Program-made: the position numbers and the translations under genes
Shown: piece by piece, positions 17,583 to 56,930 of the stretch
Layout: each line of letters opens with the position of its first letter
Position numbering within the stretch: position 1 is the stretch's first letter
Assembly: GCA_050248915.1 (NCBI GenBank)
Contig: JBFWRL010000007.1
Location: 6,084 to 70,083, forward strand
DNA length: 64,000 nt
From: Candidatus Sericytochromatia bacterium
GTDB lineage: Bacteria > Cyanobacteriota > Sericytochromatia > UBA7694
Reading direction: 5' to 3'
Notes under the pieces: generated by a model
Database searches by the model: none
What the model was told of the DNA's origin: nothing
The model's input: the letters and a program-made list of their open reading frames with translations, nothing else

Positions 17583-20180
17583 CTATAACTTTTGAATAGA
17601 ACGAGCCAAAAAAGGACGATCTGACTGAAAGTTTTGAATACTTTTACGCAAAACTTCATCGACAGTTTCTGTACGCCGCGTATCGAAGCCTGTTAATTGC
17701 TTTAAATGATACTCTGCATTGCGACGGATTTTTTCAACCTGTTGAGCCACCTGTGCTCGCTCCGTCTGGCGGGCATTCTGCTGTTCTGCCAACAATAGGT
17801 TGATTTGCTCCGTGGTTTTGAGAACCTGCTCTAACCACTTTTGGGTCGCTTGCTCAAGTTCTCGATTATCTGGGCGGGGGGATTGGCTCAAAAGGGCCTG
17901 GGCCTCATTGGCCTTGGCAATCAAAGCCTGAAGTTCCTCATCCAATTGCTGTTTCAGGGCTTCATTCAAGCTATCCGAAACAGCAAACAAATCAGCTATC
18001 AGAGACTGTAAATCTTGGGCCTGTTGTAACAAAAATGCGCTCAGTTGGGCCAGTAAATGGCCACGCATTAAACTCTCAGTGGCTTGACTGAGCGTCTCTT
18101 CTGCTTGGGCCAGAAGAGCGGGCAGCCGCTCAAAAATAGCATTGGCTTCACTGCGTAAATCACCAAGCAACTCGATGGGCAAGAGCCCTGCCAGATCCGG
18201 ATTCTGAGATACGTCTTCCAGTTCTGAATTGGCCTTTTTGAGGTCTTTCATTTTATCTTTAACAACAGACACAAGTTCTGCCTGTTCTTTCACACGGGCA
18301 TTTAAAGTCGCCGCTTCTTGATCAGCCTGGATTTGTAAGCGCGTCACCGTGGCCCCACTCGCCGCCAATTTTGCATCGAGTTCTTTTAACTTGGCTGCTT
18401 GGCCTTGTAAAGCGGCCTGAAAATAGTCCCCCAAAAGCTCAGGACCCACCGACTGCCCATTGCGCTTAAAGGTGGGTGAACCACTGCCGAGTTCAAGCGA
18501 AAGACCATATTCAGCCAATAGTTTATTCAGATCAGCCAATTTTTCAGCCGAACCAAATTGCTGTAAAAAGGAGGCATCCCATTGCCCCGATTTGGCTTGT
18601 TGGAGCAAGCTATTGAGCATCCGTTGTTTTTCGGCTTCCGCTTGCGCTTGTGCCGCAGCTTCTTGTTGTTGCTTTTGCGCCGCAGCCAAATCATCCAAGG
18701 TCTGATCATATTTGACCCGCAATTGCTGAATATCTGCATCATTGCGTTTGATTTCTTCTTCGAGCGCTTTTACCTCAGTCAACAAAAGTTGGTTTCTGGC
18801 CATCACCTCAAAGGCCTGGGCCAAACCTTCCACCTGTGTCAGGGTAAATCCTGACGCTCTGGGGTTTTGTATCCGCTGAATCAGTTGGGCAACTTGTTTT
18901 AATTGGCCCAAATCTTTGCTAGAAATCTCTTCTTTATTGGCCAAATTGTAGAGTTTGCCGTCCTGAAAACGCAATCCCAAGGTGCGCAAGAGTGCATTTT
19001 CTTGGTTGGACAGAGTCTGCCCTGGCTGCCCCAATTTATCTAAAATCGTGGCCAGTTGAGCCATTTCGGGCTTGTTGTAATTGCGCATAGCCTGAACCAA
19101 AACATAGCCCATTTTGGATTTAAGATCGAGATCTGCCACCACTCTTTGCTGAGTGTTCCCATCGATCAACACCGTGTTTGAGCCTGGGCCGCGTCCTTCA
19201 ACGATGCCCAAACGTACCTGCTCTTGAAAGAGTTTGGCCAGATCAGAGCCCTGATTGTGGATCAATCCGGTCAAGCCAGCAATATCACCATCTTCAAAAT
19301 TCAGACGCCGCAGCTCATTGTCATTCATTTTGAGCATTTGGTCATAAAATTGATTCCGATCGTTGACCAAAACAGCTTGGGGACTACTTGGCCCCCCCCC
19401 TTTGCTGGCGTTTGCTGGGGTTTTCGCCTGTTGCTCACTCCAAGCCTGATAGCCCCAGGTCACAGGACGCAATTCGGAAATAACCGCCGCTGAAAGCAGA
19501 GCCGGTCGCCGAGCCAAAGCGGGAACCTTTTCAAAAATAGCCTGCAGTTGGGCCTTGCTTGGACGCTCTTGGGTCGCAGTCAAAGTCTGAACCAGTTCAT
19601 TGACCGTGGCTTGGGCCAAAGCTGGGTTTTTCAGGTGTAGGCGCTGCAATTCATGGGTCATTTCACTTCTGAGCAGCTGCACCTGCACATCTTCAATCAG
19701 TTTGGGTTCGGGCACAGTGGCTGACAAGCGCTTTTGTTCTTCTGAATTCAGGGGTTTCTGCTGACGGACTTTTTCCATGATCTCCAAGAGCTGATCCACT
19801 TCTTCTGGCGATTTGCCCTGAATGGCATTGACCGTCTTTTGAATATGGGGCAGCCGGGCCCAATAGCTATCGATCTTAAAACTTTTACCCGCTTCCGCAG
19901 ACAGCGTTGTGTCGGAGCGATCCATTTTGGCCAAAGCCGCTTGGACCACATTTTCAACAGGTTCGCCTTTTTCCAATAAATTGATAGCCGCAACCACATC
20001 GGGATTGTCGAGGTTGGCAATAAAGGTCAGTTCGTCCTGGGTTGGGTTGGGCCCCAATTCCTGCCGCAGTTCATGCAGTTCTTTTGCGGTGACTTTGCCA
20101 TCATTTTTGAGCGCCTGATGGGCTTTTTGCAGCAGTTGAGAAGAAAGGGGGCCTGTGCCTGTGTGCTCAGAACGAATCAT
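17583..20180 (-). CDS. Large coiled-coil protein (865 aa), unknown function
   Basis: Long heptad-like Q/E/K/L-rich segments. No enzymatic motif. Confidence 0.5.
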   Translation of the reverse strand: MIRSEHTGTGPLSSQLLQKAHQALKNDGKVTAKELHELRQELGPNPTQDELTFIANLDNPDVVAAINLLEKGEPVENVVQAALAKMDRSDTTLSAEAGKSFKIDSYWARLPHIQKTVNAIQGKSPEEVDQLLEIMEKVRQQKPLNSEEQKRLSATVPEPKLIEDVQVQLLRSEMTHELQRLHLKNPALAQATVNELVQTLTATQERPSKAQLQAIFEKVPALARRPALLSAAVISELRPVTWGYQAWSEQQAKTPANASKGGGPSSPQAVLVNDRNQFYDQMLKMNDNELRRLNFEDGDIAGLTGLIHNQGSDLAKLFQEQVRLGIVEGRGPGSNTVLIDGNTQQRVVADLDLKSKMGYVLVQAMRNYNKPEMAQLATILDKLGQPGQTLSNQENALLRTLGLRFQDGKLYNLANKEEISSKDLGQLKQVAQLIQRIQNPRASGFTLTQVEGLAQAFEVMARNQLLLTEVKALEEEIKRNDADIQQLRVKYDQTLDDLAAAQKQQQEAAAQAQAEAEKQRMLNSLLQQAKSGQWDASFLQQFGSAEKLADLNKLLAEYGLSLELGSGSPTFKRNGQSVGPELLGDYFQAALQGQAAKLKELDAKLAASGATVTRLQIQADQEAATLNARVKEQAELVSVVKDKMKDLKKANSELEDVSQNPDLAGLLPIELLGDLRSEANAIFERLPALLAQAEETLSQATESLMRGHLLAQLSAFLLQQAQDLQSLIADLFAVSDSLNEALKQQLDEELQALIAKANEAQALLSQSPRPDNRELEQATQKWLEQVLKTTEQINLLLAEQQNARQTERAQVAQQVEKIRRNAEYHLKQLTGFDTRRTETVDEVLRKSIQNFQSDRPFLARSIQKL

Positions 20181-21402: not shown

Positions 21403-23892
21403 CTATTGGGGAATCCCACGTACTTGTGTCATGCCCTGCCCGCCATTGGCACTGTTTTGTGACCAAGTTGCGGGCTCAGAATCTACCACGGTATATGTGC
21501 CGGCGGGTAAGACTACATTGGGTTCAGTAAACCAATAGGCATTGGGTACCCCGCCCTGACCTGGGCGGGTACTCACAGCCCAGGGGCCGTAGAGTTTGCC
21601 ACTGCTATCTTTTAACCCAATTGTGCCACCGGGAGAACCTTGGGCATTGTTCCAGTGATAGGTCTGTAAAAAGGTGATTTTGCTGGCCTGGGCCAGGTTA
21701 AACTGGGTGGCCGAAGTCGGCAAATTAAACACAGCCAGGATATTGCCATTGTCGTAGAGCATCTGATCCTGTACGGTGGGCGTGGCTGAAGCCGTGGGCT
21801 GCGCATTGCCCAGATTGGGTCCGACCCAGAGCAATTCTTTGCCCTCGTTAACCACCATCAATAGGCGATCTCCAGTCGGACTAAAAGCCAAATAGCCAGG
21901 TTTGGGAACACCTGTGAGATAGGGAACCGGGGCAGAAAAAGTAGGCCCGCCTTTAATCACCTGATTCTGGCTTGGAGAACTCCAGTAAAGGGCCTTGTCA
22001 AACTGGCCACCCCCAGCAGCCAAACCACCAAAATTGGTGTCTTTTGCGGCCTCTGCGATCAATTTGGCTGCTCCATTGGGCTGTATCAGGTACACACCAG
22101 GGGTGCCGCCAAACGGCCAACCACCAGCACTGTTTAAGCCATAGAGTTCGTGGCGAGAATCGAGATAGGCCAGGGAAAACAGTCCAGGTGGAATTTCACT
22201 GTCGAGCAGCCCCACTTCTTGGTTGCTGCCAGCGGGTAAATACCAGACATTGTCATTTTCAAAATCGGCAAAATACCAACCCGCATCAGTGCTGGGGGCA
22301 TCGTTGAGCTGGAGGGGGGTCAGGCCCTTGCCGATCTGAACCAGATATTGACCATCACAGACCACGGTCAAATTGCCGGTTTGGGGATCAAAGCGCAATT
22401 CATTGGGTTTGGGCAGACCTTTGACCACCACCGTGGTGGTGCCATCAGCCGCAATTTTTAAGACATTGCCACTCTGGCGCTCCAGGGTATAGAGCCCGGC
22501 CCCATGTGGGCCTTTGTCGGTATAAGCCAAGCCATCCCAATCTTTGCCTTCGGGGGCCTGGGCATAGAGGCTGGCAATGCCCCCAGAGACCTGGTAAACG
22601 CCCCGTACGCCAGGGCCAGATCCCCACCAAGAGCCGGCTTCAATCCGGTTGAGGAAAAACAAGTTCTGATTGAGACTGTCATAAGCCAAAGAGGCCAGAG
22701 CTCCCGGTATTGGGCCTTTACTGGTATCCAGCATCCCCGTTTCTGCTGCCGTGGCATCGGGCTTAAACCAGACATTGTCGCTTTCAAAATCACTAAAATA
22801 CACGCCACCTTGGGGAGCGGGCAAAATATCGTGCAGACCATCGTGGGACAGGGTGTTTTTCCACTCTGTGACTGAACCATCGGCATTAAACTGGTAAATA
22901 CCCCGGGTTTGCACCCCGGCGGCAGGCGCATAGTCCATGCTCACAACGGGTGTTCCATTCACCACGGCTCCGTGCCGCCAAATCGGGCCCCGCAAGAGGT
23001 CATGGCTGGCATAAACTGAGCTTTTGCCCAGGGTATCCAATTTGATCAAGCTCTGACGATTGAGTGAACTGGTCATGGCATAAAGCGTGCCATCGGGGGC
23101 ATAAAAATGGGTCCCCAAAGGCCCCAGCGTATAATTTGAACGCAAAACCTGCATTTGCATCCCCGCAGGGATCTCAACCCCGGTCAACTCAGCGGGCATA
23201 AATAAATCTGTGCGGGGCATACGGGTAATCTCCTGGGTCCCCGCGTGATCTGCTTTGAGTTTGATCTGGCTGGAAGAGCCATCGGGGAGCAGTTTATAGA
23301 TACCGCCAAAGCTATTCCCGCCATCGGGCCAATAATCGATCGCAGCGATGTAGCCACTTCCGTCTTTTAAGGGCACAGCCCCTTTGCCGTTGATCCCTGC
23401 CAGCAAGTCGCCAGTGACCGCTGTTTTCCAACCACCACAGGCATCGGTACTGGCGATCTCCTTTTTGCTGCGATCAGAAGAAAAAACCTGGGCTTGCCCC
23501 TGATCATCAAAAAAGACATCTCCCACCTTAAAAGGCGTTTCATAGAGTCGCGCCATCATTCCTGCTGGCACATTCAGTCCTGTGGGCAAGGGCAACTCTT
23601 TTAAAACAGCTGTGCTGCCACAAGAGCCCACAGGGGCAGAAGAGGGCTCTAAACTGGGCAAAGGTGCAGGTGTTGCACTCTGGCCGGGTGCGGGTGGAAT
23701 CACTTGCGGGGCAGAAGCTGTCGCCAGGGGGGTTGGCGTGGCCGTCGCTGCGACTGTTGGGCTTGCGACAGGCAAAGCAGAGGGAACTGGGGCAGATGAG
23801 CTGGTTGGATTGGATGTAATGGGTGCAGGTCCGCAAGCTGTCAAACTCAAGGCCAACAGGGCAGATACCCGAAATTGAATGGATGTGTGCAT
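21403..23892 (-). CDS. Large lipoprotein (about 830 aa) with a Pro/Ala/Ser/Thr-rich linker and Gly/aromatic-rich beta-rich body
   Basis: Signal peptide and lipobox (ALSLTAC|G) start at the internal Met. A ~100-aa PAST-rich linker follows, then many G/Y/W-rich segments. The start is trimmed from 23970 to 23892. Confidence 0.55.
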   Translation of the reverse strand: MHTSIQFRVSALLALSLTACGPAPITSNPTSSSAPVPSALPVASPTVAATATPTPLATASAPQVIPPAPGQSATPAPLPSLEPSSAPVGSCGSTAVLKELPLPTGLNVPAGMMARLYETPFKVGDVFFDDQGQAQVFSSDRSKKEIASTDACGGWKTAVTGDLLAGINGKGAVPLKDGSGYIAAIDYWPDGGNSFGGIYKLLPDGSSSQIKLKADHAGTQEITRMPRTDLFMPAELTGVEIPAGMQMQVLRSNYTLGPLGTHFYAPDGTLYAMTSSLNRQSLIKLDTLGKSSVYASHDLLRGPIWRHGAVVNGTPVVSMDYAPAAGVQTRGIYQFNADGSVTEWKNTLSHDGLHDILPAPQGGVYFSDFESDNVWFKPDATAAETGMLDTSKGPIPGALASLAYDSLNQNLFFLNRIEAGSWWGSGPGVRGVYQVSGGIASLYAQAPEGKDWDGLAYTDKGPHGAGLYTLERQSGNVLKIAADGTTTVVVKGLPKPNELRFDPQTGNLTVVCDGQYLVQIGKGLTPLQLNDAPSTDAGWYFADFENDNVWYLPAGSNQEVGLLDSEIPPGLFSLAYLDSRHELYGLNSAGGWPFGGTPGVYLIQPNGAAKLIAEAAKDTNFGGLAAGGGQFDKALYWSSPSQNQVIKGGPTFSAPVPYLTGVPKPGYLAFSPTGDRLLMVVNEGKELLWVGPNLGNAQPTASATPTVQDQMLYDNGNILAVFNLPTSATQFNLAQASKITFLQTYHWNNAQGSPGGTIGLKDSSGKLYGPWAVSTRPGQGGVPNAYWFTEPNVVLPAGTYTVVDSEPATWSQNSANGGQGMTQVRGIPQ

Positions 23893-24063
23893 AAATGTCT
23901 CCCTAAAAATGGTTTCTAGTTCGAGTGTACGTAAAAAGCAGCCTCTGCCAAATGATCGGTATCGCCCCAATTATTGATTCCAATCAAAGATCTGAGAGAG
24001 CCATTCTTCCCTGCAGAGATTTGTTACAATGCTTGCAACACACATAGCAACAGGAAAAAAACC

Positions 24064-26438: not shown

Positions 26439-27749
26439 CTAAATTGTGCGCTCAGCGTGACCAACCGAAACCACCAACAACTCCAAAAAAGCCCGTTCGG
26501 GCCAAGGCGAGAGCGAAAGTCGAAAGTGCGGCACCTGGCTGAGATAGGTCTCAGCAAAATGCAGGTCCAAGGGCAGGGGATCGTGGCAATAAATATCCGT
26601 GGGACGGTGCCCCCCTTCCGGCTGGGCCAGATCAGACCAATGGCGATAGGGCAAAACCTGCAAGCGAGCCGAAATTTGCAGAGGCTCGGCAGCATCAGAC
26701 TGCCAAGCAGCATTTAAACCTTGCTTGAGTCCATTTTGCAGGCAATCTTGTAAGGCCAAAGGACTGCTGCCTGCAGGCCAAACCTCAGGCAAAAGCAGGC
26801 CAGATGTTTGTTTTGTGACTTGCTGGGCCAAAGCCCTCAGAAGCGGATTTTGCCCGCGCAGGGGACGGGTATAATCCGCAGCGGTTTCGAGCTCTAAGCT
26901 GGCCCCAGCAGGGCTTGATTCAATGCGAAAAAGCAGATCGGCCTGAGGCCCCTCCAGGGTCTGGGCAAAAAAAGGCAGGGGTTCAGCATCAACGGGCAGC
27001 CAGGTCAAAAGTGGTTCCAAAAAAACCTGGTGCAAAACCTGCAGGCTGGGTTCGGGTAAGTTCAACGACAAAACCGAAGGCCTGGATTCAGTTTGTTTCA
27101 GTTTGGGACTGAAATAAGCCAGATATTGCTGCCAATCGGGCTTTAACAATAATTCAGCATAGGGGCTGGGCTGAATTTTGGGGCCTGTATCCAAGAGACA
27201 AAAATGGGTCTGCTGCCAAAGCAAATTTTTGGGTGAGAGATCGAGCAGATAGCCCTTGCTGTAATAAAAATCTGCCGCTTGGCCGAGCATCTTCTCAACC
27301 GCGGCAGTCATCACAGGCGTAGCTGCCTCTGTCATCAAAAGGGCTTGCAGCGTCGGGCCAGCCTCCCAGCTTTTGAGCAGGGCTGTTTCTGACTGGGCCA
27401 CAACAGCAGCAACAGCCCACCCCGCCTGCTGTAAAAGGCGTGTCACTTCGGCCTCTGTGGCCAAGAGTTGGCGCAAAAACGCCACCGAAGCCCGAATTTG
27501 TTTGAGGGCATAATTTTGCTCCCCGTCTAAAGCCTGCACACGATAGACCGAGCCAATCAATCCGGCGCCAGCAAATGCCAGCACACGATAGAGCTGCTCA
27601 GCGACAGGCAAACATGTGCCCACAGGCAATACAACCGATGCCGCCAATAATTGTTGCTTGAGCCGGGGGCTCTTGACCACGGCACTGAGCAGCCCCAATT
27701 GTTCGCTTGAAAGTGTTAAAAAAGCCTTTTGCACAGAGCAAGCTCCCAA
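26439..27749 (-). CDS. Protein-kinase-fold (eukaryotic-like kinase) domain protein with an unknown ~230-aa C-terminal domain
   Basis: Ordered motifs: Gly-loop AFAGAGLIGSVYRV, VAIK-like YALKQI, catalytic-loop-like LLDLSPKNLLW, DFG-like LLDTGP. Spacings match the protein kinase fold. Confidence 0.55.
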   Translation of the reverse strand: MGACSVQKAFLTLSSEQLGLLSAVVKSPRLKQQLLAASVVLPVGTCLPVAEQLYRVLAFAGAGLIGSVYRVQALDGEQNYALKQIRASVAFLRQLLATEAEVTRLLQQAGWAVAAVVAQSETALLKSWEAGPTLQALLMTEAATPVMTAAVEKMLGQAADFYYSKGYLLDLSPKNLLWQQTHFCLLDTGPKIQPSPYAELLLKPDWQQYLAYFSPKLKQTESRPSVLSLNLPEPSLQVLHQVFLEPLLTWLPVDAEPLPFFAQTLEGPQADLLFRIESSPAGASLELETAADYTRPLRGQNPLLRALAQQVTKQTSGLLLPEVWPAGSSPLALQDCLQNGLKQGLNAAWQSDAAEPLQISARLQVLPYRHWSDLAQPEGGHRPTDIYCHDPLPLDLHFAETYLSQVPHFRLSLSPWPERAFLELLVVSVGHAERTI

Positions 27750-27764
27750 AGGAGCATCGGCAAC

Positions 27765-28214
27765 TTAGAGCAGGGCTTTGCGCAGGCGTTTAACGGCATG
27801 TTCCATCTCGACCAGGGCTTCGATGGACTTGACCACAGAAGCATCTACAGCGAGAATCTGGGCCATTTTTTGCACCGCATCTTTTTCTGCTTGGGCATAG
27901 TGGCCATCAGCCCGACTGATTTCAATGGCATCACGAATCAGCATCCGGGCACGTTTGCCCCCTTTGGTAAAGTCGGGCAAAAGGGCTTCCAATGTGGTCG
28001 AAGCGGGATCAAACTCGGTGATGGCCTGAACAGCATCTGCCGAGGCGCCTACCCGTTTCATGCCTTTGAGCAGCGCTTGCCACTCGCTTTCAGCAATTTC
28101 ACCATCAGCGGCAATCACACATTTGAGGGCCTTGAGATAGTTCAAAGCCTGTTCATAGGACTTGGGCTGTTTGCCATAGCGCTGTTCTACGGCTTGGGCA
28201 TTGTACTGACTCAT
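27765..28214 (-). CDS. TerB-like (tellurite-resistance TerB / DUF533-type) domain protein
   Basis: Helical 149-aa protein with the DGxxxxxE...DG pattern (AADGEIAESEW; RADGHYAQAEKDAV) of the TerB family. Confidence 0.5.
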   Translation of the reverse strand: MSQYNAQAVEQRYGKQPKSYEQALNYLKALKCVIAADGEIAESEWQALLKGMKRVGASADAVQAITEFDPASTTLEALLPDFTKGGKRARMLIRDAIEISRADGHYAQAEKDAVQKMAQILAVDASVVKSIEALVEMEHAVKRLRKALL

Positions 28215-28346
28215 CTTAAATATCCACCTTTAATTCTGCTTCATTTTTAATGGTAGTATACGCCTGAAAGTGCTTCAGAGGCAGATTCAATGATTAAAAC
28301 TCGGTAAAGCCAGGCAGACTTTGGGTCGATCAGGGCTATAATCGTT

Positions 28347-30944
28347 ATGAAGCCAAAACACACGAGGAGACAGACAGCCACTATGGGAGATATTAAGCGC
28401 CTGGGAAGCGGTTTTGCCCTCTCTTCCTCTTCGCCCATTTTCCGCGGCTCACTCTCCATGCCCAAGATGACAGTGGGTCAGATCGACATGCCGTCGATCT
28501 CACAGAAACATGTTTTAGAAAATATCGACAGCCAACAAAGAGCGGTGGCCCAGGCCATTGATCAATCGGTCAAAAGTGTCAGTCAGGCCTTTCAGAGCAG
28601 TAGCCAATTTTCAATCAAAACAGCAGATGGCCGCAGTGTTCCTGCTGCCCGCTTTCTCTCTCCCGATGAACTCAAACAATTGGAACGTTTGCCGCCCCAC
28701 TTGCAACGTCAGATCTTGGATGTCAGCTCTGTGCGTGGCAGCAATAATTCCCAGATTCAAGCCCAACTCAGCAAAAATATCAAAGCCGTGATCACAGGTA
28801 TTGCCGAAGTCCAGGAATTAAAATTCAGCGGCAAAGACGGCAGAGATTGGACTGTTCGCAATTTGCTTGATCTGGCCAATGCCGTCAATCAAATGCCGAT
28901 CAGCCACCGCCAGCAATTGGAGGGAGTCAACTTTATCCGAGATGATGAACCCGATCTGGGCTACAAGGATCACACTCCCGACCTGCTCGAAAAAATGGCC
29001 AATAAAATGGTGGCCGGGCATTATGATTTAAGCTCTCGTTCTGTGATTCTCTATGATCGTGGCATACAAGATAGTTTTCCTGTTTTAGACGCCGATTTGC
29101 AGCAAAATTTACGCGCCATTTCAGCCCACGCCTGTGACTCCTGCAGTGCTCCCAAATTAGATGCAGAGGTACAACAGGGCTTGAAGGCCTTACAAGGCAA
29201 AGCAAGCCCCAAAGATGTGGCCAGCTTACAAAAATTACTCAATCCCTTTTTGGCCCAGCTCAACCGACCGATGATTCATGAAAATGGCCAGTGGGGCCCG
29301 CCGACCGAAACAGCCGTGCGCACCGTTCAGGCCCATTTGCTGGACAAATACCTACAAAACAATTTTCGCTTAAACCCCGCTCAAAAACAGGAATTGCAGC
29401 AACTCCAACAATTGGCCAGCTCTCCCCAATTTGGCATGATTACCCGTGTAGTGAGTTTAAAAGACAAAATGCAAAATCTCAGTCAGATACCCGATCCACA
29501 GGTTCAAAAATTGCTGGCAGAATTGGCCAATAGTGAATTTGGCAATGTCTCCACCCAATTTTTGCTCAGGGATATTTCCGATGCCTCCCGCTCCAATCGA
29601 CATGTGACCCGCACCGAAGAAGTGATGATCCATGAAATGGGTCACCATATCCAAATGGGTCTCTCAAATGAAAATGAGTATATTGCCGAATTCAGCAAAC
29701 TTTCAGGCTGGGTCAAGCGCGAGAGTGGTGAAGTCGCTGATGGCTATGTCAACGGCATGATGAGCTCCGAAAACGTGGCAGATGTCTATAACCAACTCGC
29801 TTCAAACGGCCAGATCGACGAAGGGCTTTATACAGCCAAACTCAGCCCCCAAGAGCGCAACCAGGTCTTTGTCACCAGTTATGCCGCCACAGATCCTATG
29901 GAAGACTTTGCCGAATCGTATAAAACATTTGTGCTCGATCCTGTCAGTTTGATTGAAGCCTCGCCTGAGAAATTCTTTTTTATTAACTCCCTGCCCACCC
30001 TGCAAAATCACAAGGTGGGGGGCGGCATCAAACAAAGGGTTCACTATACCGAAGAGCAAATTCGCCCCTTTGTCACAGCCGCTTTGCGCAATCAATACCG
30101 CTTTGAACCCAGCAAGATCAATGTCGATACTTTTATCCGTGAACATTTTGAAAATATCGTGGGTGCGGGCAATTCGCGTCGCCCCTTGCACCTCTCTTCG
30201 GATACCATCCTGGCTGTTTTGGATACCCATGAGGGCCTGCTCAAGTCTTTAAATTTGGAACATTTGAGCCCCCCCCAACGCGCAGGGGCCCGAGATCCCG
30301 ATTTTGCCGTCTTGCAAGAAATCCATCGAAAAACACAGAGTTTGATTGTCTCCAAAGGCAGTGCACGTGAGGCCCAGGCGTTTTTCCGTTCGTTTACCAA
30401 TGCCAATGAAATTGAAACGCGTTTTCCCAAGGCCTCAGCCGATTTAAAAGCCAATCTCAAAGACCAAAACTTTGCGGCAATGATGTTGGCGATGGGCAAA
30501 ATTAGCGGATATGCCGCGATGCTCAATCAGGCCAAAAACGTCGATTTTCAAGATAATCAGACCTACAAAGACGCCAAAGATTATTTTTCGACCGCTTTCA
30601 AACAGCCCTCAGCCCTGCTCAGCCGTCAGGTATTGACCCAGGGCTATAACCTGCTGCGTGGGGTGAGCAGCAATTGGGTCAATCCAGAAGATCGCAAGAT
30701 TGATCCCGCCCGCGCATTTTTTCAGACCCTTGAGGCAGATCCTGCAGAGGCCTTTCCCGAAGGCTGGTACCTCTTTCCCGATGAATTTAAAGAGATGTTG
30801 CAAAACAAACGTTTTCTTCAAGCTATCTCGGGCGATTCCGGTCGCTACCAACCCTCCCCCGAGGTGATTCACCAAACCCTCGAAAAAATTGTGGAGATGA
30901 TTGAATTTAAACGCGGCCTGGATGAAATGCTCAACGGCGGTTAA
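28347..30944 (+). CDS. Large zincin-like metallopeptidase-domain protein (865 aa), effector-like
   Basis: HEMGHH (HExxH) at aa 429-433. An acidic EDFAESY segment lies ~90 aa downstream. Long non-catalytic N- and C-terminal regions. A GAGGAG Shine-Dalgarno before the ATG at 28383 suggests the true start is there. Confidence 0.6.
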   Translation: MKPKHTRRQTATMGDIKRLGSGFALSSSSPIFRGSLSMPKMTVGQIDMPSISQKHVLENIDSQQRAVAQAIDQSVKSVSQAFQSSSQFSIKTADGRSVPAARFLSPDELKQLERLPPHLQRQILDVSSVRGSNNSQIQAQLSKNIKAVITGIAEVQELKFSGKDGRDWTVRNLLDLANAVNQMPISHRQQLEGVNFIRDDEPDLGYKDHTPDLLEKMANKMVAGHYDLSSRSVILYDRGIQDSFPVLDADLQQNLRAISAHACDSCSAPKLDAEVQQGLKALQGKASPKDVASLQKLLNPFLAQLNRPMIHENGQWGPPTETAVRTVQAHLLDKYLQNNFRLNPAQKQELQQLQQLASSPQFGMITRVVSLKDKMQNLSQIPDPQVQKLLAELANSEFGNVSTQFLLRDISDASRSNRHVTRTEEVMIHEMGHHIQMGLSNENEYIAEFSKLSGWVKRESGEVADGYVNGMMSSENVADVYNQLASNGQIDEGLYTAKLSPQERNQVFVTSYAATDPMEDFAESYKTFVLDPVSLIEASPEKFFFINSLPTLQNHKVGGGIKQRVHYTEEQIRPFVTAALRNQYRFEPSKINVDTFIREHFENIVGAGNSRRPLHLSSDTILAVLDTHEGLLKSLNLEHLSPPQRAGARDPDFAVLQEIHRKTQSLIVSKGSAREAQAFFRSFTNANEIETRFPKASADLKANLKDQNFAAMMLAMGKISGYAAMLNQAKNVDFQDNQTYKDAKDYFSTAFKQPSALLSRQVLTQGYNLLRGVSSNWVNPEDRKIDPARAFFQTLEADPAEAFPEGWYLFPDEFKEMLQNKRFLQAISGDSGRYQPSPEVIHQTLEKIVEMIEFKRGLDEMLNGG

Positions 30945-30961: not shown

Positions 30962-31189
30962 CTAATTTCTGAGACTCAGGGCAGGGGCCACTTCGGGCTC
31001 GGCCCGCAGTGGAATTTGGCGACGCGCCAGCAGACACTGCAGTTGAAAAGGGCTCAGCCCCGTCATGGCCATGATTTGGCGCAAATTCAAGCGCTTCTGT
31101 TCGTAGAGCATCAGGGTGATTTCAAGACTCAGCTCTTCTTCAGTCATTCCCAGGGTCTTGAGTGTGGCATCTGAGATATGTAGACTCAT
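30962..31189 (-). CDS. UPF0175-family small protein (antitoxin-like)
   Basis: 75 aa, with ...LNLRQIMAMTGLSPFQLQCLLARRQIPL helix-turn-helix-like C-terminus typical of UPF0175. Confidence 0.5.
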   Translation of the reverse strand: MSLHISDATLKTLGMTEEELSLEITLMLYEQKRLNLRQIMAMTGLSPFQLQCLLARRQIPLRAEPEVAPALSLRN

Positions 31190-33945: not shown

Positions 33946-35163
33946 ATGACCGGAAGTGTACAATTCTCCAACCAACAGTGGCTCGTTCGTTCTCTGGATA
34001 AAAATAACAATAACGTGATGGATGAACTCAAACTTGATCCCCGCGTCAAAGACAAAGTTGACACAGATAAAAATGGCGAAGTCAGCCGCAATGAATTGAC
34101 CTCCGCCCTGCAGTCCGACGCCGTGGAAATTAACCAAGGCGTGATCACCGAAAGCAAAGGCATTCAGATCTACACCAAAGGTCTCGAAACTCTGAAAAAC
34201 GTTCACACCACCGCCAGCAATTCTTGGGGCCACGTCTTCACCCCCAGCTTCTTTCAAGATGATACCCTGGGTGAGCGCTACAACAAACTCGTCGACAGCA
34301 ACCGCGCTTATACCTCCGCCATCGATCGCCAAGAATCTGCGCTGCGCTCCATTCGCGATATGACCGCCAATGCCCCTGATGCCACCTCCCGCGCTCTGCA
34401 TATTCAAGCCGATACCACCCTGCGCAGCGCCAGCTGGCGGACCTGGACAGGCACTTTCCAGAATCTGCTCGCCATGGGCAATAGCTCCGATGAGCACACC
34501 GTGCGTCAGATGGAAATGGCCAATACCAATTTCCAAGCCGCTTTTGAAACCCTCAACAACACCATGCGCTCGATCGCCGACCAGACCAAAAATCTGCCCG
34601 ACGTGCAGGCCGCTTTAAAAGCCACCGACAATTCCATTTCCAAAGCCTTTAGCAATATCACCCAGATTGAAAACGCCAGCATTTCTGCTCAAGATGTGGG
34701 CAGCAAACTCGACAAATTGGCCGACGAAACCCAGGCCAAAGCTACTGGCCGTACGACTCCCTTTGCTTTGACCGGTGCTGGGATTGGCGCGGTTGCTGGT
34801 GCAGCCATCGGCTTCTTCGCTGGTGGTAAAACTATCAAAGCCGCTGGCTTTGGGGCTGGGATTGGCTTGGCCGCCTCTGCAGGCATCGGCGCTATGATTG
34901 GCAGCAGCATCGACAGCAAGTACAAAGGGGCTGCCGACGACCTGCGCAACCTCTCCAGCGAAGTGCGCAGCTACAACCCTGCTGCCGAAAAAGGCAAGCT
35001 GCTGGATGAAACCCAGAAAACCTACGGCGCCATGCTCGAAGCCCGTGAGCACCACGATCTGGACAATGCCCAGGTCAGCGCCAATAATTTCCGCAGCATC
35101 CAGAGCCGCGTGGCTCCTGTTGAAAAACAATCCGAGCGCATTCTCGGAGCGTACAAAAAGTAA
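33946..35163 (+). CDS. Hypothetical protein with an EF-hand-like Ca-binding loop and a C-terminal glycine-zipper membrane segment
   Basis: DTDKNGEVSRNEL fits the EF-hand loop DxDxNGxISxxE. C-terminal TGAGIGAVAGAAIGFFAGG...GFGAGIGLAASAGIGAMIG is a glycine zipper. Confidence 0.5.
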   Translation: MTGSVQFSNQQWLVRSLDKNNNNVMDELKLDPRVKDKVDTDKNGEVSRNELTSALQSDAVEINQGVITESKGIQIYTKGLETLKNVHTTASNSWGHVFTPSFFQDDTLGERYNKLVDSNRAYTSAIDRQESALRSIRDMTANAPDATSRALHIQADTTLRSASWRTWTGTFQNLLAMGNSSDEHTVRQMEMANTNFQAAFETLNNTMRSIADQTKNLPDVQAALKATDNSISKAFSNITQIENASISAQDVGSKLDKLADETQAKATGRTTPFALTGAGIGAVAGAAIGFFAGGKTIKAAGFGAGIGLAASAGIGAMIGSSIDSKYKGAADDLRNLSSEVRSYNPAAEKGKLLDETQKTYGAMLEAREHHDLDNAQVSANNFRSIQSRVAPVEKQSERILGAYKK

Positions 35164-37865: not shown

Positions 37866-38116
37866 AGCTCATTTTTTCTGAGGGCGCTTGGGAAGACACT
37901 CTCTTTTGGCAAAAAACAGACAAAAAAATCCTCTTCCGAATCAATCTGCTGATCAAAGAAATTTGTCGCACCCCTTATGAGGGGATTGGCAAACCCGAGT
38001 CCCTCAAACATGCCCTGGCAGGCTATTGGTCTCGGCGCATCAATGATGAACACCGAATTGTCTATAAAGTCGAAGGGGAATCGCTATTAATAGCACAATT
38101 GCGCTACCACTATTGA
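37862..38116 (+). CDS. yoeB: YoeB/Txe-family toxin (mRNA interferase)
   Basis: KLIFSEGAWEDTLFWQKTDKKILFRINLLIKEICRTPYEGIGKPESLKHALAGYWSRRINDEHRIVYKV. GTG start overlaps the yefM stop (GTGA). Confidence 0.85.
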   Translation: MKLIFSEGAWEDTLFWQKTDKKILFRINLLIKEICRTPYEGIGKPESLKHALAGYWSRRINDEHRIVYKVEGESLLIAQLRYHY

Positions 38117-38169
38117 GAGAATGAAAAAAGAAGAAGATTAAACAATCTCATTGAATAGGGAGAACATCT

Positions 38170-39315
38170 TTGCGCTCATCTTTGTTTTTTCTAAAGGGAC
38201 GGCTTCGATTCTTTCTCCTTTTTGTTTTGCTGAGTAGTTGTAGACAACCTCATTCTACTAACACAGGCGACATTGGCCTATTATCTTTGGCCTGGGATCA
38301 GGGCCAAGTTCCACATTTGCTGTTCAAATACAATTATCTTTCAGGCACTCCAGATAACGCTATCAGTGAGACGCGGTATTATCAGCTCAATGTCCTTCAG
38401 CCAGAAGCCCCTGTTTTAACAGAAATCGACCAAAATACAATGCGGGCTAAAATTCCACCTTCCAACATGTCGGGACGGGAGTTGTTGGCCAAAAATCATA
38501 AAAAACTCAGGCCTTTTCCCGATGACACAATCGCCCGGATTCTGGACTACAATATCGAGGCTTGCAGCTTGGATCCCAGCCAGCAGTGGCTTTTGGTCGC
38601 CCACCGTCAAAGTCAACCTTTCCCTAAAACCTCCGAGCTGGTTTACAGCCTGTATCAAATCGAGGATAAGACCTATCGCAATATCAAAGGATTGGCGTCT
38701 ATACCCGGCTCCAGCGATCCTCAACGCGAAGTGATACTCAGTTGGACCGGTTTTGGCTACGATGTTTTGGTGGAATATGAAGAAAAAGACCGGATCTACC
38801 ACGCTCGCAGCCAGATTGATCTGAATACAGCCGAGTTAAAGCCACTGACCGTGTTTAAAACTTATCTGAAAAGAGAGAGTACCGAAAAGCGTTGGAAAGC
38901 CAGCTTTACTCCTCTCAGTCGCCAGTTTAGACCCCGTCAAGACAATGAGAACGATGTCAAAGTTCTGGTTTGGGAAAGTGCCGATAAGGTACTTTTTCTT
39001 GAAAAAAAGGCCAATGACAAGGAAATCTATCTGATCAAGTATGACTTTAAAACCCAGACAGAGTCAGAAATGGCAAAGATGGAGCGGGAGCTGAGTTATT
39101 ATGACTCTTTATTCATCCGCGAGCAAATCTCTCTTGCTCACAAAAAAGTAGTCTACCTGATTCCTAAAGTGAAAGAAGGCACGGATGAACTCTGGTTAAG
39201 TAATTTCGAAGGAACAGAGCGAAAGATGGTTCTCAACCGAATTCGGGATTTGCCCGTGGGTCTGTCCGAATATGTAAATGCAACAAGGATTATATTGCCT
39301 GAAATCGAGCCTTGA
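38170..39315 (+). CDS. Hypothetical lipoprotein encoded in an AT-rich island
   Basis: Signal peptide and lipobox LLSSC. Local GC is visibly lower than the flanks. No known motif. Confidence 0.45.
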   Translation: MRSSLFFLKGRLRFFLLFVLLSSCRQPHSTNTGDIGLLSLAWDQGQVPHLLFKYNYLSGTPDNAISETRYYQLNVLQPEAPVLTEIDQNTMRAKIPPSNMSGRELLAKNHKKLRPFPDDTIARILDYNIEACSLDPSQQWLLVAHRQSQPFPKTSELVYSLYQIEDKTYRNIKGLASIPGSSDPQREVILSWTGFGYDVLVEYEEKDRIYHARSQIDLNTAELKPLTVFKTYLKRESTEKRWKASFTPLSRQFRPRQDNENDVKVLVWESADKVLFLEKKANDKEIYLIKYDFKTQTESEMAKMERELSYYDSLFIREQISLAHKKVVYLIPKVKEGTDELWLSNFEGTERKMVLNRIRDLPVGLSEYVNATRIILPEIEP

Positions 39316-39364
39316 GCTTTTCTGATTGGCTCCCGTTTTTTGCCTAAAACCCAACACCTAAAAC

Positions 39365-40564
39365 CTATTGTTTATAAAAACGCGTCCCAGGCAGAACCAA
39401 CTCATCGCCCCGGTGTTTGATCTCGATCTCACCGCTGGATTTAAAGACATAGAGGCCCTCGTCTTTGCCGACCGAAGAAAAGCGCTCGTATTCGCTGTCT
39501 CCGTCGCGGTAGGTTTCCATCAGCAAAAAGGAGTTCTGGTCGAGACCCACACTCATGCTGTGATTAAAGCGGGCCGCGGTATAGGCGATGGTATCGGGGT
39601 CTTCCATGAAGATATAGTCTTTGCAATGGGGGAAGAGCTGCACCTTGGTCACCAGGCCAAAGCCCTGATCAAAGAGTTCAAAGTCGTACATGCGCGAAGA
39701 GCCTGTCCACTCATTGGAATTGTCGTCAAAGACCACCAGATAATCACAGAGGCAGAGCGATCCAGCTGAAACCGTATAAAAATTGGCCCCGCGCGCCAAA
39801 GCCGTTTGAAAGGCCTCTTTGAGTTTGAAAAAGTTCAAGCGGTTCCAAAGTACGGCAATATGGCCGCCAAAGATAAAAATCGAATTGGAGGTCAAAATCC
39901 GCTCTTCGAGTTGGCGTTTGAGGGTTTGGTAGAGGGGATCTTGGGCCACTTGAGAGGTGGTAAAAAAATACTCGTCGATCTCGTGGCAGACCTTGAGCAT
40001 CTGCGCGTCATTCTCGCGAATCTTGTCCATGCTGGCCTGAATATCCTGGCAGGCATAGTGGTAGAGCAATTCAATCGGCTTGAGTGAATGCAGGCGTGTT
40101 TGCCCCTGCACCACATCATAACCCAGCGCCCGCGCCAAACTCATGCCTTTAAAACTCTCTTTGAGCAGGGTCAATTGGCTCTGCAAAATGCGAATCAGAC
40201 CGGCATTTTTTTCGCGGTAAAAGAGCTTGACCTGTTGAATTACCTGCTGTTTGCTGTGGTAAAGCCAGTACAGCCCCGCCTCTTTTTTGCGGAAGAAATT
40301 GAAGTCGTGGTAAATCGAGAGGTTTTGAATATTCTGATCATACCCCCCGTCAAACTGGGGCTGAATCCCAATTCCATACAGCGCCCGCTTAATATGCGCC
40401 TCTTGAAACTCACGCTTTTGCCAAGCAGCGGTGATCAGCAAAACCTTGCGGCTCTGGCGCACAGCCGGGTCTTCGTGCTTGGAGTCGAGAATTTGGCTTT
40501 TAAAGGCCTCAATAAAATCTGTTTCGAGCTGAATATTGCCGTTAAAGACGATACTGCCCTTCAT
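39365..40564 (-). CDS. Two-domain protein: unknown N-domain plus C-terminal peptidase S51 (PepE/cyanophycinase-like, class I glutamine amidotransferase-like) domain
   Basis: IFIFGGHIAVL and FYTVSAGSLCLCDY parallel PepE's IVGGGNTF and YIGWSAGAN (Ser nucleophile). Confidence 0.45.
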   Translation of the reverse strand: MKGSIVFNGNIQLETDFIEAFKSQILDSKHEDPAVRQSRKVLLITAAWQKREFQEAHIKRALYGIGIQPQFDGGYDQNIQNLSIYHDFNFFRKKEAGLYWLYHSKQQVIQQVKLFYREKNAGLIRILQSQLTLLKESFKGMSLARALGYDVVQGQTRLHSLKPIELLYHYACQDIQASMDKIRENDAQMLKVCHEIDEYFFTTSQVAQDPLYQTLKRQLEERILTSNSIFIFGGHIAVLWNRLNFFKLKEAFQTALARGANFYTVSAGSLCLCDYLVVFDDNSNEWTGSSRMYDFELFDQGFGLVTKVQLFPHCKDYIFMEDPDTIAYTAARFNHSMSVGLDQNSFLLMETYRDGDSEYERFSSVGKDEGLYVFKSSGEIEIKHRGDELVLPGTRFYKQ

Positions 40565-44686: not shown

Positions 44687-47600
44687 CTAAAACAGGGGTC
44701 GCAGGGAGCCCGGCGCCCCCTGATTGACAAAGAGCCGGATGCGATCCAGCCGGGCCTGTAAGAGAGTGCGCTGGACAGGATTCTGTTCTTGCAGGGCCTG
44801 GGTATTCAGGGTCTGAATTTCAGCATCGATCTCGGCCCGTGTAACCGGAAAACCATTCAAACGGGGCGTTACCACTTGAATTTGAATGCCGTCTCTTCCC
44901 ACAAACAAGGGGGCAGATACGGCAGCTTTGCCGGGTATTTGCAGCGAAATTTCAGGTTCTTCGGGCGTTGGCGACGGTGGTTGGGAGACTTCAATTCTGC
45001 CTGTCTTCAGAGCTTCTGGGCTGATTATCACTGGACCTGGGCCCGCTGGCAGCACAATTTCAAGCGAAAGATCGCCCGCTGGCAGACTAATTTCAGGCTG
45101 AGTCTCTTGCTCTCTTGCCGGTTTTGGAGCAGGACCAGCCTTTTCTTCGTCCACCAGAATCAAGGGAATGGGTGCTGGCGGGAATGAAACATCTTCTAAA
45201 CCAACATGTACCCGACCGCCCAGTGTTTGGGGAATGCCCGCCAAGCTGGTTGGCGGATCTTGGGCCAGGGCCTGGGTCAAGATCAGGGCCTCGGCCCGCG
45301 TAATTTTGCCAGAAGCCAAATCCTGCTCAATCTGGATCTGAATGGCCTGGTTCTGCTCCAGAGTGGGAGCCACTTTGCCATCGGGCCCGGGCAAATAGGC
45401 ATTGCGCCGCAAGAGCAGGGCTTCACTCTGGCTGATCCGCCCTGTTCTGAGATCTGTGTCAAGGGCCTGGGCAATCAGGTTTTTAAAACCGGCCTCGCCC
45501 TGACTCTGCACAATGGCCCGTCCCGTGCCACTTTGCCCTGTGCGCAGCAAAAACTCAGCCTGACCAATCACCCCATTTTGATTCAAACTGTTGAGAAAAT
45601 TGTCTGCCGCCAATTGCCCCTCGTTGGTGCCCAGACCCGTTTTGACCCGTTCCTGGATGGCCTCTTTTAAGCCTGTGCCTTCGTTGAGCAGGGTGCCAAT
45701 ACCAATACCAATGCTGTAGCTGTCCAAAACCAGAGACAGGCTCTGGGTGGCAGGAGAAAAAGCCGCCACATCACTGACCACGCTGACCAAATCGTTAAAA
45801 GTGGTGAAATCGTCTTTTCCCGCATTTAAATCCGAGATCAATGTGCCAATATCTTTGGCCAAAAAACCGGCATTGGCTAAAAAACCCAGTACAGGAATCC
45901 GACTTTCAGCTTTGAGTGCAACCTGGGAAGGCCCACTGGCAGCCTGGGCGGCCTCTGCTATTTTCTCAGGGCCTAGGGCCACAATTTTGGGCAACAACTC
46001 TTGCAGACCTTTGTTAAGTTTGTCCAGCCCAATAACATTGCCTACCGAGCTGCCAAATCCCACCAGTTTTTTTAAAAGTTCTGGTCGCTGGTTCAGGGCG
46101 GCAATAAATTGGTCCCCCACACCGGGCGAGAGGGCATTAAAGGTCTTTTGCAGGGAATTGACAAATTCTCCCACCTGCTCGGCCAATTTGGCATCTTTCA
46201 CCAGAGTCGAAATGGCACCTTTGAGCAGCTTGGCCTCGTCCCGCACAAACTTGGCGGCTTTTTCTGCGGCCTTGGCAATCAATGGAGAGGCTTTCGCTAA
46301 ATTCTGAGCACCTTCAAGAATATCCGCTGTCTTGGTGACAATTTCAAAGCCTTTCAAGGCTTTGTCTTTAAAAGAGAGCTCCAAGCGCAATACTCCTTTG
46401 GCCAGAGTCGATGGCGGGTCCAGAATCACCGTATTTTGGGCGCTGTCGACCGAAGCGACTTTAAAGGACTTCTCGCCAATGCGAACAGTGTCCCCAGCAC
46501 TGAGCAGATTGGCTTTGCCTGCAGGCAGTTGCAGGGCATTGCTGCCCGCAGGAATTTCAAAGGCAATCGGGTCAGCCCCCTGAAACAGGGTCTGAAAATT
46601 GCGCGAGATATCGCGTAAATTGCCCGGCGTTCCCAAGAGAGCGCCGATCCCATCCAGGCCTTTGACAAAATCTTCGGCGGACTTGCCTGGCCCCAAGAAC
46701 CCTTGCAGGAGTTTTTGTTTAACATCGGGCTCAGCCACAGCGTCAAAGCGCTCCAAAAATCCTTTGTAGGCCTGAACCAAGGTACCTGCCGCGCTGAGTT
46801 TGTCGAAATTGGAGGCATTGGGATCGGCCAGGGTTTTGAGGCTTTCGTTGATCTTTTGCGGTGTGGCATCCTCCCGAGCCAAACCTTCTCCCGCCAAGAA
46901 CTCTGTCCCGACGATCTTTTGGGGAGTTTCTAGACCTTCTTTGAGATTGGCAAAAGCCACCCCGGCTGTGGAGATAAAATCTGCACTCAACTGAGCTGGA
47001 GAGAGAGCAGCTTCGGTTGCAGCTGTGACAAAAGCGGCTTTTTTCTCGGGAGTGTCTAGCACAAAGCGGCTTTGTTCGGGATTGGCCTGCAATTGCTGAC
47101 GTAGAAAACTGGCAAAGGTCTGGGGATTCACGCCCAGCTCTGCTGCTGCCTGGGCCAAAACCTGGACATAATTGTCTTTGTTCAGATCCTGGCCACGCAC
47201 AATCAGGGGCTTGCCTTGGGCATCCTGCCCCAAATCCAATTCCACCTTGCCCAGGAAGAGCAGCCCTGAGGCATCTTTAAACGGCTGGATCTGCCTCTGC
47301 AGATCTGCCACGCGGGAAATTTCAGCAATGCCTGTCTCCTGAAGCAAAAATGCAGCAATTTGAGGATTGGAGGGCGTTGCCCCCGCCACCACAGCCAAAT
47401 TTTGCGCATTTTGGCTTTCGAGAAAATTAGCAAAGGCCCGATTCAATTCCTGCCCCAATTTTTCGCTGCCTGTGCGCCCAGCCCCTTGCAGACCCGCCGT
47501 GATTTGACGACTGGCATTGGCAAAGCGCGCCAACAGCGCCGGGTTCTCGTTGAGGGTGCGCCGTCCCAAGGCGCTCAGACCCTGAATTTTTTCGCGCAGC

Positions 47601-55139: not shown

Positions 55140-55154
55140 ATCTGCAGCAAAACA

Positions 55155-55184
55155 AAAGCGCTCCGGAATTCTGGGGCGCTTTTA
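55155..55184. terminator. Bidirectional rho-independent terminator
   Basis: aaaagcgctccgg-aattc-tggggcgctttt hairpin with flanking A and T runs between convergent genes. Confidence 0.7.
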
Positions 55185-55649
55185 GTTGTTTGTCATAATG
55201 AGGGGAATGCCTTTGACACTGATGCGCGAAGCACTTTGATCATAGCCGTAAATGGCATAGGCGCCCAAGGCAAATTGTTCATAAGTTAAAAGCCCTTTGG
55301 TTTTGGGCTGAGATTCGTCATCAAAGGCATTGCCCTTGCCCTGCAGGCCAGTATAGGGATTCTGCAATTCTTTGAACAATTGGCTGTTCCGCATTTCTGG
55401 CTCAGCACTCAAAGCCGTAACATCAGCGGGATAAATCCCCCCATACAGCGCACTGTAAATTTCAACCATGGTTCTAAATGCCGACATATTGGCTTTGGTA
55501 CTGGCATCTTTGGCCCTGGACTGGGCCGCATTAAACTGGGGCAGCGCAATGGCCACCAAAATACCAATAATCACAATCACAACCATCAACTCTATCAAGG
55601 TGAACCCGCGTTGCTGGGTTCTGAGCTTCAGCTTCCATTCACGTAACAT
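55182..55649 (-). CDS. Prepilin-type N-terminal cleavage/methylation domain protein (type IV pilin / pseudopilin-like)
   Basis: QRG|FTLIELMVVIVIIGILVAIALP class III signal sequence. Start taken at the internal Met (MLREW). Confidence 0.75.
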   Translation of the reverse strand: MLREWKLKLRTQQRGFTLIELMVVIVIIGILVAIALPQFNAAQSRAKDASTKANMSAFRTMVEIYSALYGGIYPADVTALSAEPEMRNSQLFKELQNPYTGLQGKGNAFDDESQPKTKGLLTYEQFALGAYAIYGYDQSASRISVKGIPLIMTNN

Positions 55650-55795
55650 TAAAATACCCCTTATACCTGAAAAACACTGATTTTGCCGATCGTCAAAACT
55701 CAAATTTCAGAAAAAATCAAAATCTCAAAAAATGTCAATTAAATGATATTAAATTCTATTCCCAAAATCTAAAAATCACAAACCCCTGATAAAAA

Positions 55796-56899: not shown

Positions 56900-56930
56900 A
56901 CCCGATAGGCTGAAAAGAGGTAAATCATGC
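56900..56930 (+). promoter_or_regulatory. Candidate sigma-28 (FliA)-type promoter upstream of fliK
   Basis: TTAAGTTA-N12-CCGATAG against consensus TAAAGTTT-N11-GCCGATAA. Ends immediately before the fliK ATG. Confidence 0.35.

Follow-up and report, generated by a model that had tools for sequence, protein, structure and literature searches.

The zincin gene and its chromosomal context

The window analyzed here, a 64-kb stretch of a Candidatus Sericytochromatia genome, carries on its forward (+) strand an open reading frame at 28347..30944 that is 865 aa long when counted from its first ATG. The coding sequence proper occupies 28383..30944, with the stop codon at 30942-30944, and its translation is an 853-aa zincin; all features of the protein described below lie on the same strand. 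The initial annotation had proposed a start at 28383 behind a Shine-Dalgarno sequence. We take ATG 28383 to be the real start because a Shine-Dalgarno-like GAGGAG (28364..28369) lies 13 nt upstream of it, the product is identical to AB7I41_02745, an 853-aa NCBI protein of a Candidatus Sericytochromatia MAG, and the N termini of close orthologs begin with the same methionine (MGDI...). Residues are therefore numbered in the 853-aa frame; the 865-aa numbering used initially is higher by 12. A TATAAT at 28337-28342 would put the transcript start past ATG 28347. It was not called in a scan for promoters and terminators, whose overall score was at chance level.

The gene is a solitary one: its upstream neighbor is a divergent TerB-domain gene, and downstream lie a convergent UPF0175 ORF and then priA. 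The order of biotin carboxylase, this gene, UPF0175, PriA, and a 405-aa ORF is kept in an ortholog with 61% identity and in three orthologs with ∼90% identity, and this retention indicates vertical inheritance. In the ∼90% genome pairs, PriA is 98% identical and the zincin 88 to 90%; the zincin thus evolves faster than its housekeeping neighbors, yet it is constrained. Local GC content dips to 0.483, compared to about 0.54. Flagellar genes are found in the window 26 kb away (FliK, 56927-58465; FlgE, 58962-61127). The zincin had no PADLOC match, and none of the contexts examined linked it to a secretion system. Within the window's own clade the gene has vertical synteny only and no conserved operon partner.

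A partner is found in a sister clade. At all six loci of ∼40%-identical orthologs, the next gene on the same strand is a 557- to 616-aa ORF. The gap before it ranges from −4 to +4 bp at L011 to L014 and is wider, 67 and 120 bp, at L008 and L009. These ORFs encode HEAT-repeat proteins (HEAT_2, E values of 1e−42 to 1e−70) with 40 to 50% identity to one another, and about 26 orthologous HEAT clusters were recovered. For 13 of the 21 sister-clade zincins, the zincin and a HEAT ortholog probably share one contig, the longest contigs being equal in size. The window's clade lacks this HEAT partner, as do the 64-kb window in its entirety and all paralog loci. The partner is the only clue from conserved neighbors and is compatible with two readings, a cytoplasmic regulator or adaptor on the one hand and an immunity protein or chaperone on the other.

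A word-indexed search returned about 10 and then about 30 full-length relatives with 36 to 100% identity, and all those with a name come from Candidatus Sericytochromatia. When 1.84 billion representative proteins were searched with a profile, 349 matched at an E value of ≤1e−3, only about 15 of them over the full length; most cover just positions 385 to 511, the segment from the HExxH motif to EDFAE. In a scan of GTDB genomes, orthologs were confined to Sericytochromatia, Blackallbacteria included, and more distant domain matches were found in Bdellovibrionota/Bacteriovorax, Chloroflexota, and CPR phyla. Single genomes can contain several paralog loci (five in mt_P12, four in MAG_89); no second zincin paralog was found within the window. 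Paralogy with the window's other 865-aa ORF (17583-20180) was considered and ruled out, the two having no similarity. Compared to the three ∼90%-identical orthologs, overall dN/dS was 0.069 to 0.077, and in two of the three close pairs it was lowest in residues 401 to 545 (0.035 and 0.045). The low dN/dS and the invariant motif block described below indicate that the gene is real and that purifying selection on it is strong. We conclude that this chromosomal gene has been inherited vertically, is lineage specific, and belongs to a multiparalog family, and that it is not a mobile effector.

Catalytic signature and the split catalytic domain

The ORF encodes a single HExxH, as first reported: the HEMGHH at 29631..29648, aa 429-434 of the 865-aa frame. 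About 0.03 such motifs would be expected by chance in a protein of this length, as estimated from typical residue frequencies. Its invariance in homologs settles that the motif is real. All 10 aligned orthologs keep HEMGHH unchanged, as do the distant relatives in alignments of 31 and 70 sequences, and the full-length Sericytochromatia relatives share the whole block TDPMEDFAESYKT without variation. The motif contains the predicted zinc ligands His417 and His421 and the predicted general base Glu418. Farther along, the E-D-F-A-E at 29901..29915 contains Glu507, the predicted third zinc ligand, and Glu511, predicted to belong to the second shell. The segment YAATDPMEDFAESY (29880-29921) holds both Glu507 and Tyr500 (29880..29882), a predicted oxyanion-hole tyrosine that precedes the zinc-binding glutamate by seven residues.

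The initial annotation had pointed to EDFAESY, ∼90 aa downstream of the HExxH, as the candidate third ligand, and the first Glu of EDFAE is indeed exactly 90 residues past the first His of HEMGHH. Its description of this distance as atypically far was not upheld, because the spacing from HExxH to E-x-F-A-E in 128 relatives ranges from 32 to 124 with a median of 76. The 31-sequence alignment of residues 75 to 560, which includes distant relatives, shows no variation at H417, E418, H421, D508, A510, and E511 and a conservation of at least 90% at Y500 and E507; Y500 is invariant in orthologs. The EDFAE segment aligns with SEDIAE of a solved Mx-type protein, 4l7a.

The same set of residues is found in characterized enzymes. 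Zinc in the Pro-Pro endopeptidase (PPEP) PPEP-3 is held by His153, His157, and Glu197, with Glu154 as the base and Tyr190 in the oxyanion hole, and PPEP-1 has Tyr178 and Glu185 (PMC12828418). Anthrax lethal factor (LF) uses His686, His690, and Glu735 as ligands and Glu687 as the base (PMC5668564). The spacing from Tyr to Glu is seven in the query (Y500/E507), PPEP-3 (Tyr190/Glu197), and PPEP-1 (Tyr178/Glu185). The query reads S-Y-A-A-T-D-P-M-E-D-F-A-E across this stretch, in parallel with the LF sequence, S-Y728-G-R-T-N-E-A-E735-F-F-A-E. By homology, H417, H421, and E507 are the probable zinc ligands, E418 the probable base, and Y500 the probable oxyanion residue.

Curated models place the query close to several families. 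When 70 distant relatives were searched against Pfam, 15 matched Peptidase_Mx1, 11 Peptidase_Mx, 4 M90 (MtfA), and 2 ATLF (anthrax lethal factor; best E value, 6e−8), and most matched none. The query itself narrowly missed Peptidase_Mx (PF15887; 22.4 bits, cutoff of 27) and Mx1 (PF15890; 21.3 bits, cutoff of 25.6), for one or the other of which some orthologs have precomputed matches. It scored 15.2 bits against M90 (PF06167; cutoff of 26.2, E value of 0.016, residues 502 to 541 only) and 16.7 bits against TIGR04549 (cutoff of 75). ATLF (PF07737) gave no match to the query even at an E value of ≤10. Of the families proposed as candidates at the outset, the M34 type (LF/PPEP) is matched in residue signature and two-lobed fold, and thermolysin-like M4 and the effector families M27, M85, and M91 showed neither sequence nor fold match to the query.

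A full-length AF2 model built from 10 sequences had a pLDDT of 57.6 overall and <50 over residues 416 to 508, and it was not used for fold search. Because that model was poor, residues 75 to 560 were aligned with distant relatives in 31 sequences. The resulting domain model has a pLDDT of 89.0, a pTM of 0.89, and no segment below 50. It comprises an N-terminal alpha/beta lobe (residues 75 to 235, 28605..29087, pLDDT of 84 to 98), a long helical insert of ∼165 residues (236 to 400, 29088..29582), and a C-terminal helical lobe (401 to 545, 29583..30017) that contains the active-site helix with HExxH and the ligand helix with EDFAE. The first description of the protein as mostly helical is correct for the protein overall, but residues 75 to 225 include a true beta-sheet in the model. 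Strands of the N-lobe lie at model residues 73-76, 109-112, 138-141, and 146-149, and SVILYD at about residues 220 to 224 is the probable substrate-binding edge strand; G212, Y214, L223, and D225 are the invariant residues of this lobe in the ortholog alignment. An N-lobe with an edge strand and a helical C-lobe are the two parts of the LF/PPEP-type fold, and the model also appears similar in fold to MtfA (PDB 3dl1). Foldseek returned no significant hit in PDB (best E value, 0.14) or BFVD (0.055), and a PDB search with the query as a single sequence gave nothing relevant.

Shorter relatives show how the domain is built. Many relatives of 600 to 660 aa match the query profile as two pieces, ∼77-198 and 385-512, with the N-lobe segment only about 90 residues ahead of HExxH and with profile matches that skip the insert. 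The two pieces are about 90 residues apart in these relatives and about 190 apart in the query. This indicates one catalytic domain that is interrupted by an insert.

The query differs from each of the known systems it resembles. PPEP-1, -2, and -3 (MEROPS M34; PDB 9g0j, 6fpc) are single-domain enzymes of ∼200 residues secreted by signal peptides, whereas the query has 853 aa and no signal peptide, and a stretch of 165 inserted residues separates its edge strand from its active-site helix. The HExxH-to-Glu spacing is 90 in the query and about 44 in the PPEPs, and identity is only 17 to 20%, a likeness from which Pro-Pro specificity cannot be inferred. The query departs from LF (M34; PDB 1yqy, 1j7n) in having neither a protective-antigen-binding domain nor the context of a toxin operon, plasmid, or secretion system. 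MtfA, from Proteobacteria, is ∼265 residues long, and the query lacks its Mlc/PTS context. The Mx/Mx1/TIGR04549 [quoted passage not shown] (PDB 4l7a, 9urd) are Bacteroidota lipoproteins of ∼260 to 330 residues linked to SusC/D-type importers, whereas the query has neither a lipobox nor TonB-dependent or SusCD-type importer neighbors. The assignment of the catalytic domain to the anthrax-lethal-factor/Pro-Pro-endopeptidase/MtfA gluzincin group, in a new split architecture, is well supported, and a thermolysin-like reading is not. The catalytic chemistry and fold are already known; the split architecture is new. No description of the combination of split domain, PG_binding_1-like insert, and orphan C-terminal domain was found in the material searched, and a literature search for Sericytochromatia peptidases found nothing.

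Insert, C-terminal domain, and N-terminal tail

The insert is all helical in the domain model. Residues 250 to 272 (nt 29130-29198) include a Cys-rich stretch, AHACDSCSAP, found only in the closest orthologs, and 29211..29336 encodes a three-helix bundle (KDVASLQKLLNPF...ENGQWGPPTETAVRTVQAH) that resembles PG_binding_1. All scores of PG_binding_1 (PF01471) against the insert were below the Pfam cutoff; the fold appears PG_binding_1-like, and peptidoglycan binding is putative. The PG_binding_1 fold is also that of the prodomain of matrix metalloproteases. In one relative, P0037, the PG_binding_1-like module is repeated five times in tandem.

The orphan C-terminal helical domain (residues 546 to 853, 30018..30941) is conserved in all orthologs, among which it has 15 invariant columns, and some distant relatives also contain a portion of it (profile ∼740-810). 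It had no match among PDB sequences at an E value of ≤10 and only subthreshold noise in Pfam. T3SS_needle_F, matched by 3 of 19 members with a best E value of 0.003, far under the cutoff, was rejected as a chance match to a helical hairpin.

The N-terminal tail (residues 1 to 74, 28383..28604) is polar and predicted to be disordered (pLDDT of 24 to 37 in the full-length model), and it has no Sec or Tat signal. Its dN/dS of 0.04 to 0.07 indicates constraint equal to that of the catalytic core. Hydropathy bears out the earlier statement that the protein has no signal peptide, and it revealed no transmembrane segment and no lipobox or lipoprotein signal either (maximum Kyte-Doolittle value of 1.09 in the first 50 aa with a 10-residue window and of 1.12 anywhere with a 19-residue window). 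A hydrophobic N-terminal or transmembrane segment was found in none of 30 orthologs, whereas 33 of 118 distant relatives do carry one. Homologous proteases of other phyla often have ordinary Sec signal peptides instead: Sec-like N termini were counted in 21 of 36 relatives from other phyla versus 0 of 37 from Sericytochromatia. The missing Sec signal is not an artifact, because the exported proteins of the window (SBP_bac_5, PKD, and PD40) show ordinary Sec or lipoprotein signals.

The Sericytochromatia relatives often have in its place a motif, [ST]-x-P-[LIF], typically G-T-G-P-L, within the first 45 residues. It occurs in 35% of relatives that lack signal peptides versus 1.4% of other 45-residue windows, in 5% of shuffled N termini, and in 0 of 30 relatives with Sec-like signals. 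The query has a weaker form, SSPI, at residues 16 to 19 (nt 28428-28439). The same motif opens the unrelated orphan ORF at 17583-20180 (MIRSEHTGTGPLSS), which had no similarity to any protein or ORF in the study, and a 191-aa ORF that follows the L060 paralog (MGNVNNKTGPLSS). These are 2 of about 214 non-zincin ORFs by a rough count, compared to a background of about 0.3% per window, which is suggestive and not significant; the motif count covered about 245 ORFs. We offer as a tentative and rather doubtful idea that Sericytochromatia have a non-Sec N-terminal signal of their own, a polar disordered tail with a [GS]-T-G-P-L-type motif in the first ∼35 residues, that would export the protease family and orphans such as ORF 17583-20180. 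Two other readings of the N terminus were rejected. The frequent "MG" start does not fit N-myristoylation, since the residues at positions 2 and 5 are off the general consensus, and a flagellar export-gate F-x-x-x-hydrophobic motif (FRGSL, residues 20 to 24) is too short, is not conserved in distant orthologs, and is speculation.

Proposed function

As a whole, we consider it probable that the protein is a competent zinc endopeptidase of the LF/PPEP/MtfA group, split by an insert and vertically inherited, with a weak leaning toward the envelope. From the catalytic signature and the fold we infer how it may act. By homology, His417, His421, and Glu507 would hold the zinc, Glu418 would activate water, and Tyr500 would stabilize the oxyanion, with the substrate bound as an extended strand along the edge strand around residues 220 to 224. 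The position of the insert, with the edge strand before it and the active-site helix after it, suggests that it may gate the cleft or recognize the substrate. The disordered tail and the 308-residue C-terminal domain most likely serve targeting or partner binding. Three features lead us to lean weakly toward action at the cell envelope, beyond the cytoplasm, following non-Sec export signaled by the tail: the insert is PG_binding_1-like, homologs elsewhere bear Sec signals, and the tail is constrained and has a motif that is mutually exclusive with Sec.

A cytoplasmic MtfA-like role is almost as likely as action at the envelope. The protein would then be a partner-regulated peptidase, kept inactive or directed through its insert, its C-terminal domain, and the HEAT protein of the sister clade, that processes specific cytoplasmic proteins or peptides. 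This possible, if less probable, account agrees with the lack of an export signal and with the sister-clade HEAT partner, but that partner is missing from the window and its clade, the PG_binding_1-like insert and the Sec-bearing relatives point outside, and the constrained disordered tail with its Sec-exclusive motif is left unexplained. The initial annotation compared the architecture to secreted toxins and effectors, and a toxin delivered into prey, a competitor, or a host by a dedicated system, with the HEAT protein as immunity protein or chaperone, would accord with the fold shared with anthrax lethal factor, the repertoire-like set of paralogs per genome, the occurrence of distant relatives among predators (Bdellovibrionota/Bacteriovorax) and episymbionts (CPR bacteria), the toxin-immunity-like layout of the tightly coupled sister-clade gene, the GC dip, and the faster divergence compared to PriA. 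We found no specific support for it and think it unlikely: no secretion-system, VgrG/PAAR, Rhs, CDI, or phage genes adjoin the gene in any context examined, the window's clade has no immunity-like gene, there were no PADLOC or polymorphic-toxin-type domain matches, and a single-copy syntenic ortholog with a dN/dS of about 0.07 shows no sign of diversifying selection.

Close to P0010, the most distant ortholog, are genes for a polysaccharide deacetylase and an SLT lytic transglycosylase, along with a flagellar-hook-like gene. That context, the PG_binding_1-like module with its five tandem copies in one relative, and the FliK and FlgE genes of a flagellated organism could be read as signs of a cell wall peptidase, anchored by the module to the cell's own peptidoglycan and trimming stem peptides or wall proteins during growth, flagellar assembly, or separation. 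Such an enzyme is quite improbable here, as every PG_binding_1 score is under the cutoff, the closest structural relatives cleave proteins and not peptidoglycan, no export signal is present, the P0010 context is a single instance, and the flagellar genes are distant. The idea of a catalytically dead scaffold that retains the zincin fold is hardly credible. Nothing specific favors it, except that the insert might occlude the cleft, and against it stand the conservation of H417, E418, H421, Y500, and E507 across hundreds of relatives and the minimum of dN/dS in the catalytic segment in two of the three close pairs.

A competent, insert-split zinc endopeptidase of the LF/PPEP/MtfA group is thus the best explanation of the evidence as a whole. 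Sericytochromatia are a nonphotosynthetic sister lineage of the Cyanobacteria, poorly understood and known almost only from metagenomes. The family described here, a branch of the lethal-factor/PPEP/MtfA zincins that had not been annotated before, has a split catalytic domain and is confined to and expanded in this lineage. About 30 "hypothetical proteins" and several hundred domain relatives thereby gain an enzymatic assignment that can be tested and that names the catalytic residues. The occurrence of Sec signals in other phyla versus a T-G-P-L-type tail in Sericytochromatia offers a handle on protein export in uncultured bacteria.

Neighbors of the predicted zincin gene

In all six loci of the sister clade, whose orthologs are ~40% identical to the query, the zincin gene is followed on the same strand by a gene for a HEAT-repeat protein of 557 to 616 aa (L008, 8309-10159; L009, 3634-5454; L011, 8284-10104; L012, 8207-9913; L013, 5257-6930; L014, 8207-9934), and in four of these loci the intergenic distance is −4 to +4 bp. 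This partner is missing from the window's own clade and from the 64-kb window as a whole.

Convergent with the zincin gene in the window is a 75-aa ORF (30962-31189, − strand), whose counterpart in ortholog locus L001 is assigned to the antitoxin-like family UPF0175. The ORF is 74 to 97% identical across related genomes, with priA adjoining in every case; no gene for a cognate toxin was seen alongside.

The window also contains genes for the flagellar hook-length control protein FliK (Flg_hook domain; 56927-58465, + strand) and the hook protein FlgE (58962-61127, + strand), and we therefore conclude that this Sericytochromatia organism is flagellated. A flagellar-hook-like gene adjoins the most distant ortholog, P0010, with SLT and polysaccharide-deacetylase genes nearby.

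Large ORFs and base composition

Like the zincin ORF, the ORF at 17583-20180 (− strand) is exactly 865 aa long; its product is all-helical and coiled-coil-like. It has no Pfam match, is unrelated to the zincin by sequence comparison, and resembled none of the proteins or ORFs collected in the analysis. Five conserved ORFs were likewise unmatched in Pfam (E ≤ 1e−3): those of 855 aa (21403-23970, − strand), with a lipoprotein-like N terminus following an internal Met; 1,167 aa (44687-48190, − strand); 505 aa (48202-49719, − strand); 405 aa (33946-35163, + strand), 96 to 98% identical among related genomes; and 436 aa (26439-27749, − strand).

GC content dips locally at 18001-20000 (0.492), 28001-30000 (0.483), 38001-40000 (0.461), and 54001-56000 (0.480), compared to ~0.54 elsewhere in the window. 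Two of these four dips overlap the two 865-aa orphan-type ORFs, the zincin gene and 17583-20180.

Sequence motifs in the zincin and its relatives

Immediately preceding the PG_binding_1-like three-helix bundle in the helical insert is a stretch with a C-x-x-C motif, AISAHACDSCSAPKLD (residues 250 to 272; window 29130-29198), modeled with low confidence. Among the ortholog clusters, only the five closest contain it, and the others carry a deletion in the alignment. The stretch could conceivably have a metal-binding or "cysteine-switch"-type latency role.

Among zincin relatives lacking signal peptides, 35% carry the motif [ST]-x-P-[LIF], typically GTGPL, in their 45 N-terminal residues, against a background of 1.4% of other 45-residue windows and 5% of shuffles; relatives with Sec-like signals lack it entirely (0 of 30). 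Broken down by taxonomy, it is found in 15 of 37 Sericytochromatia relatives and 1 of 36 from other taxa. The query carries it in the weaker form SSPI at residues 16 to 19 (window 28428-28439). The ORF at 17583-20180 starts with MIRSEHTGTGPLSS, the G-T-G-P-L form enriched in Sericytochromatia relatives, and a motif of this type opens a 191-aa ORF (L060, 7821-8393) directly after the zincin paralog of that locus. The motif may serve in sorting or processing as a signal particular to this lineage.
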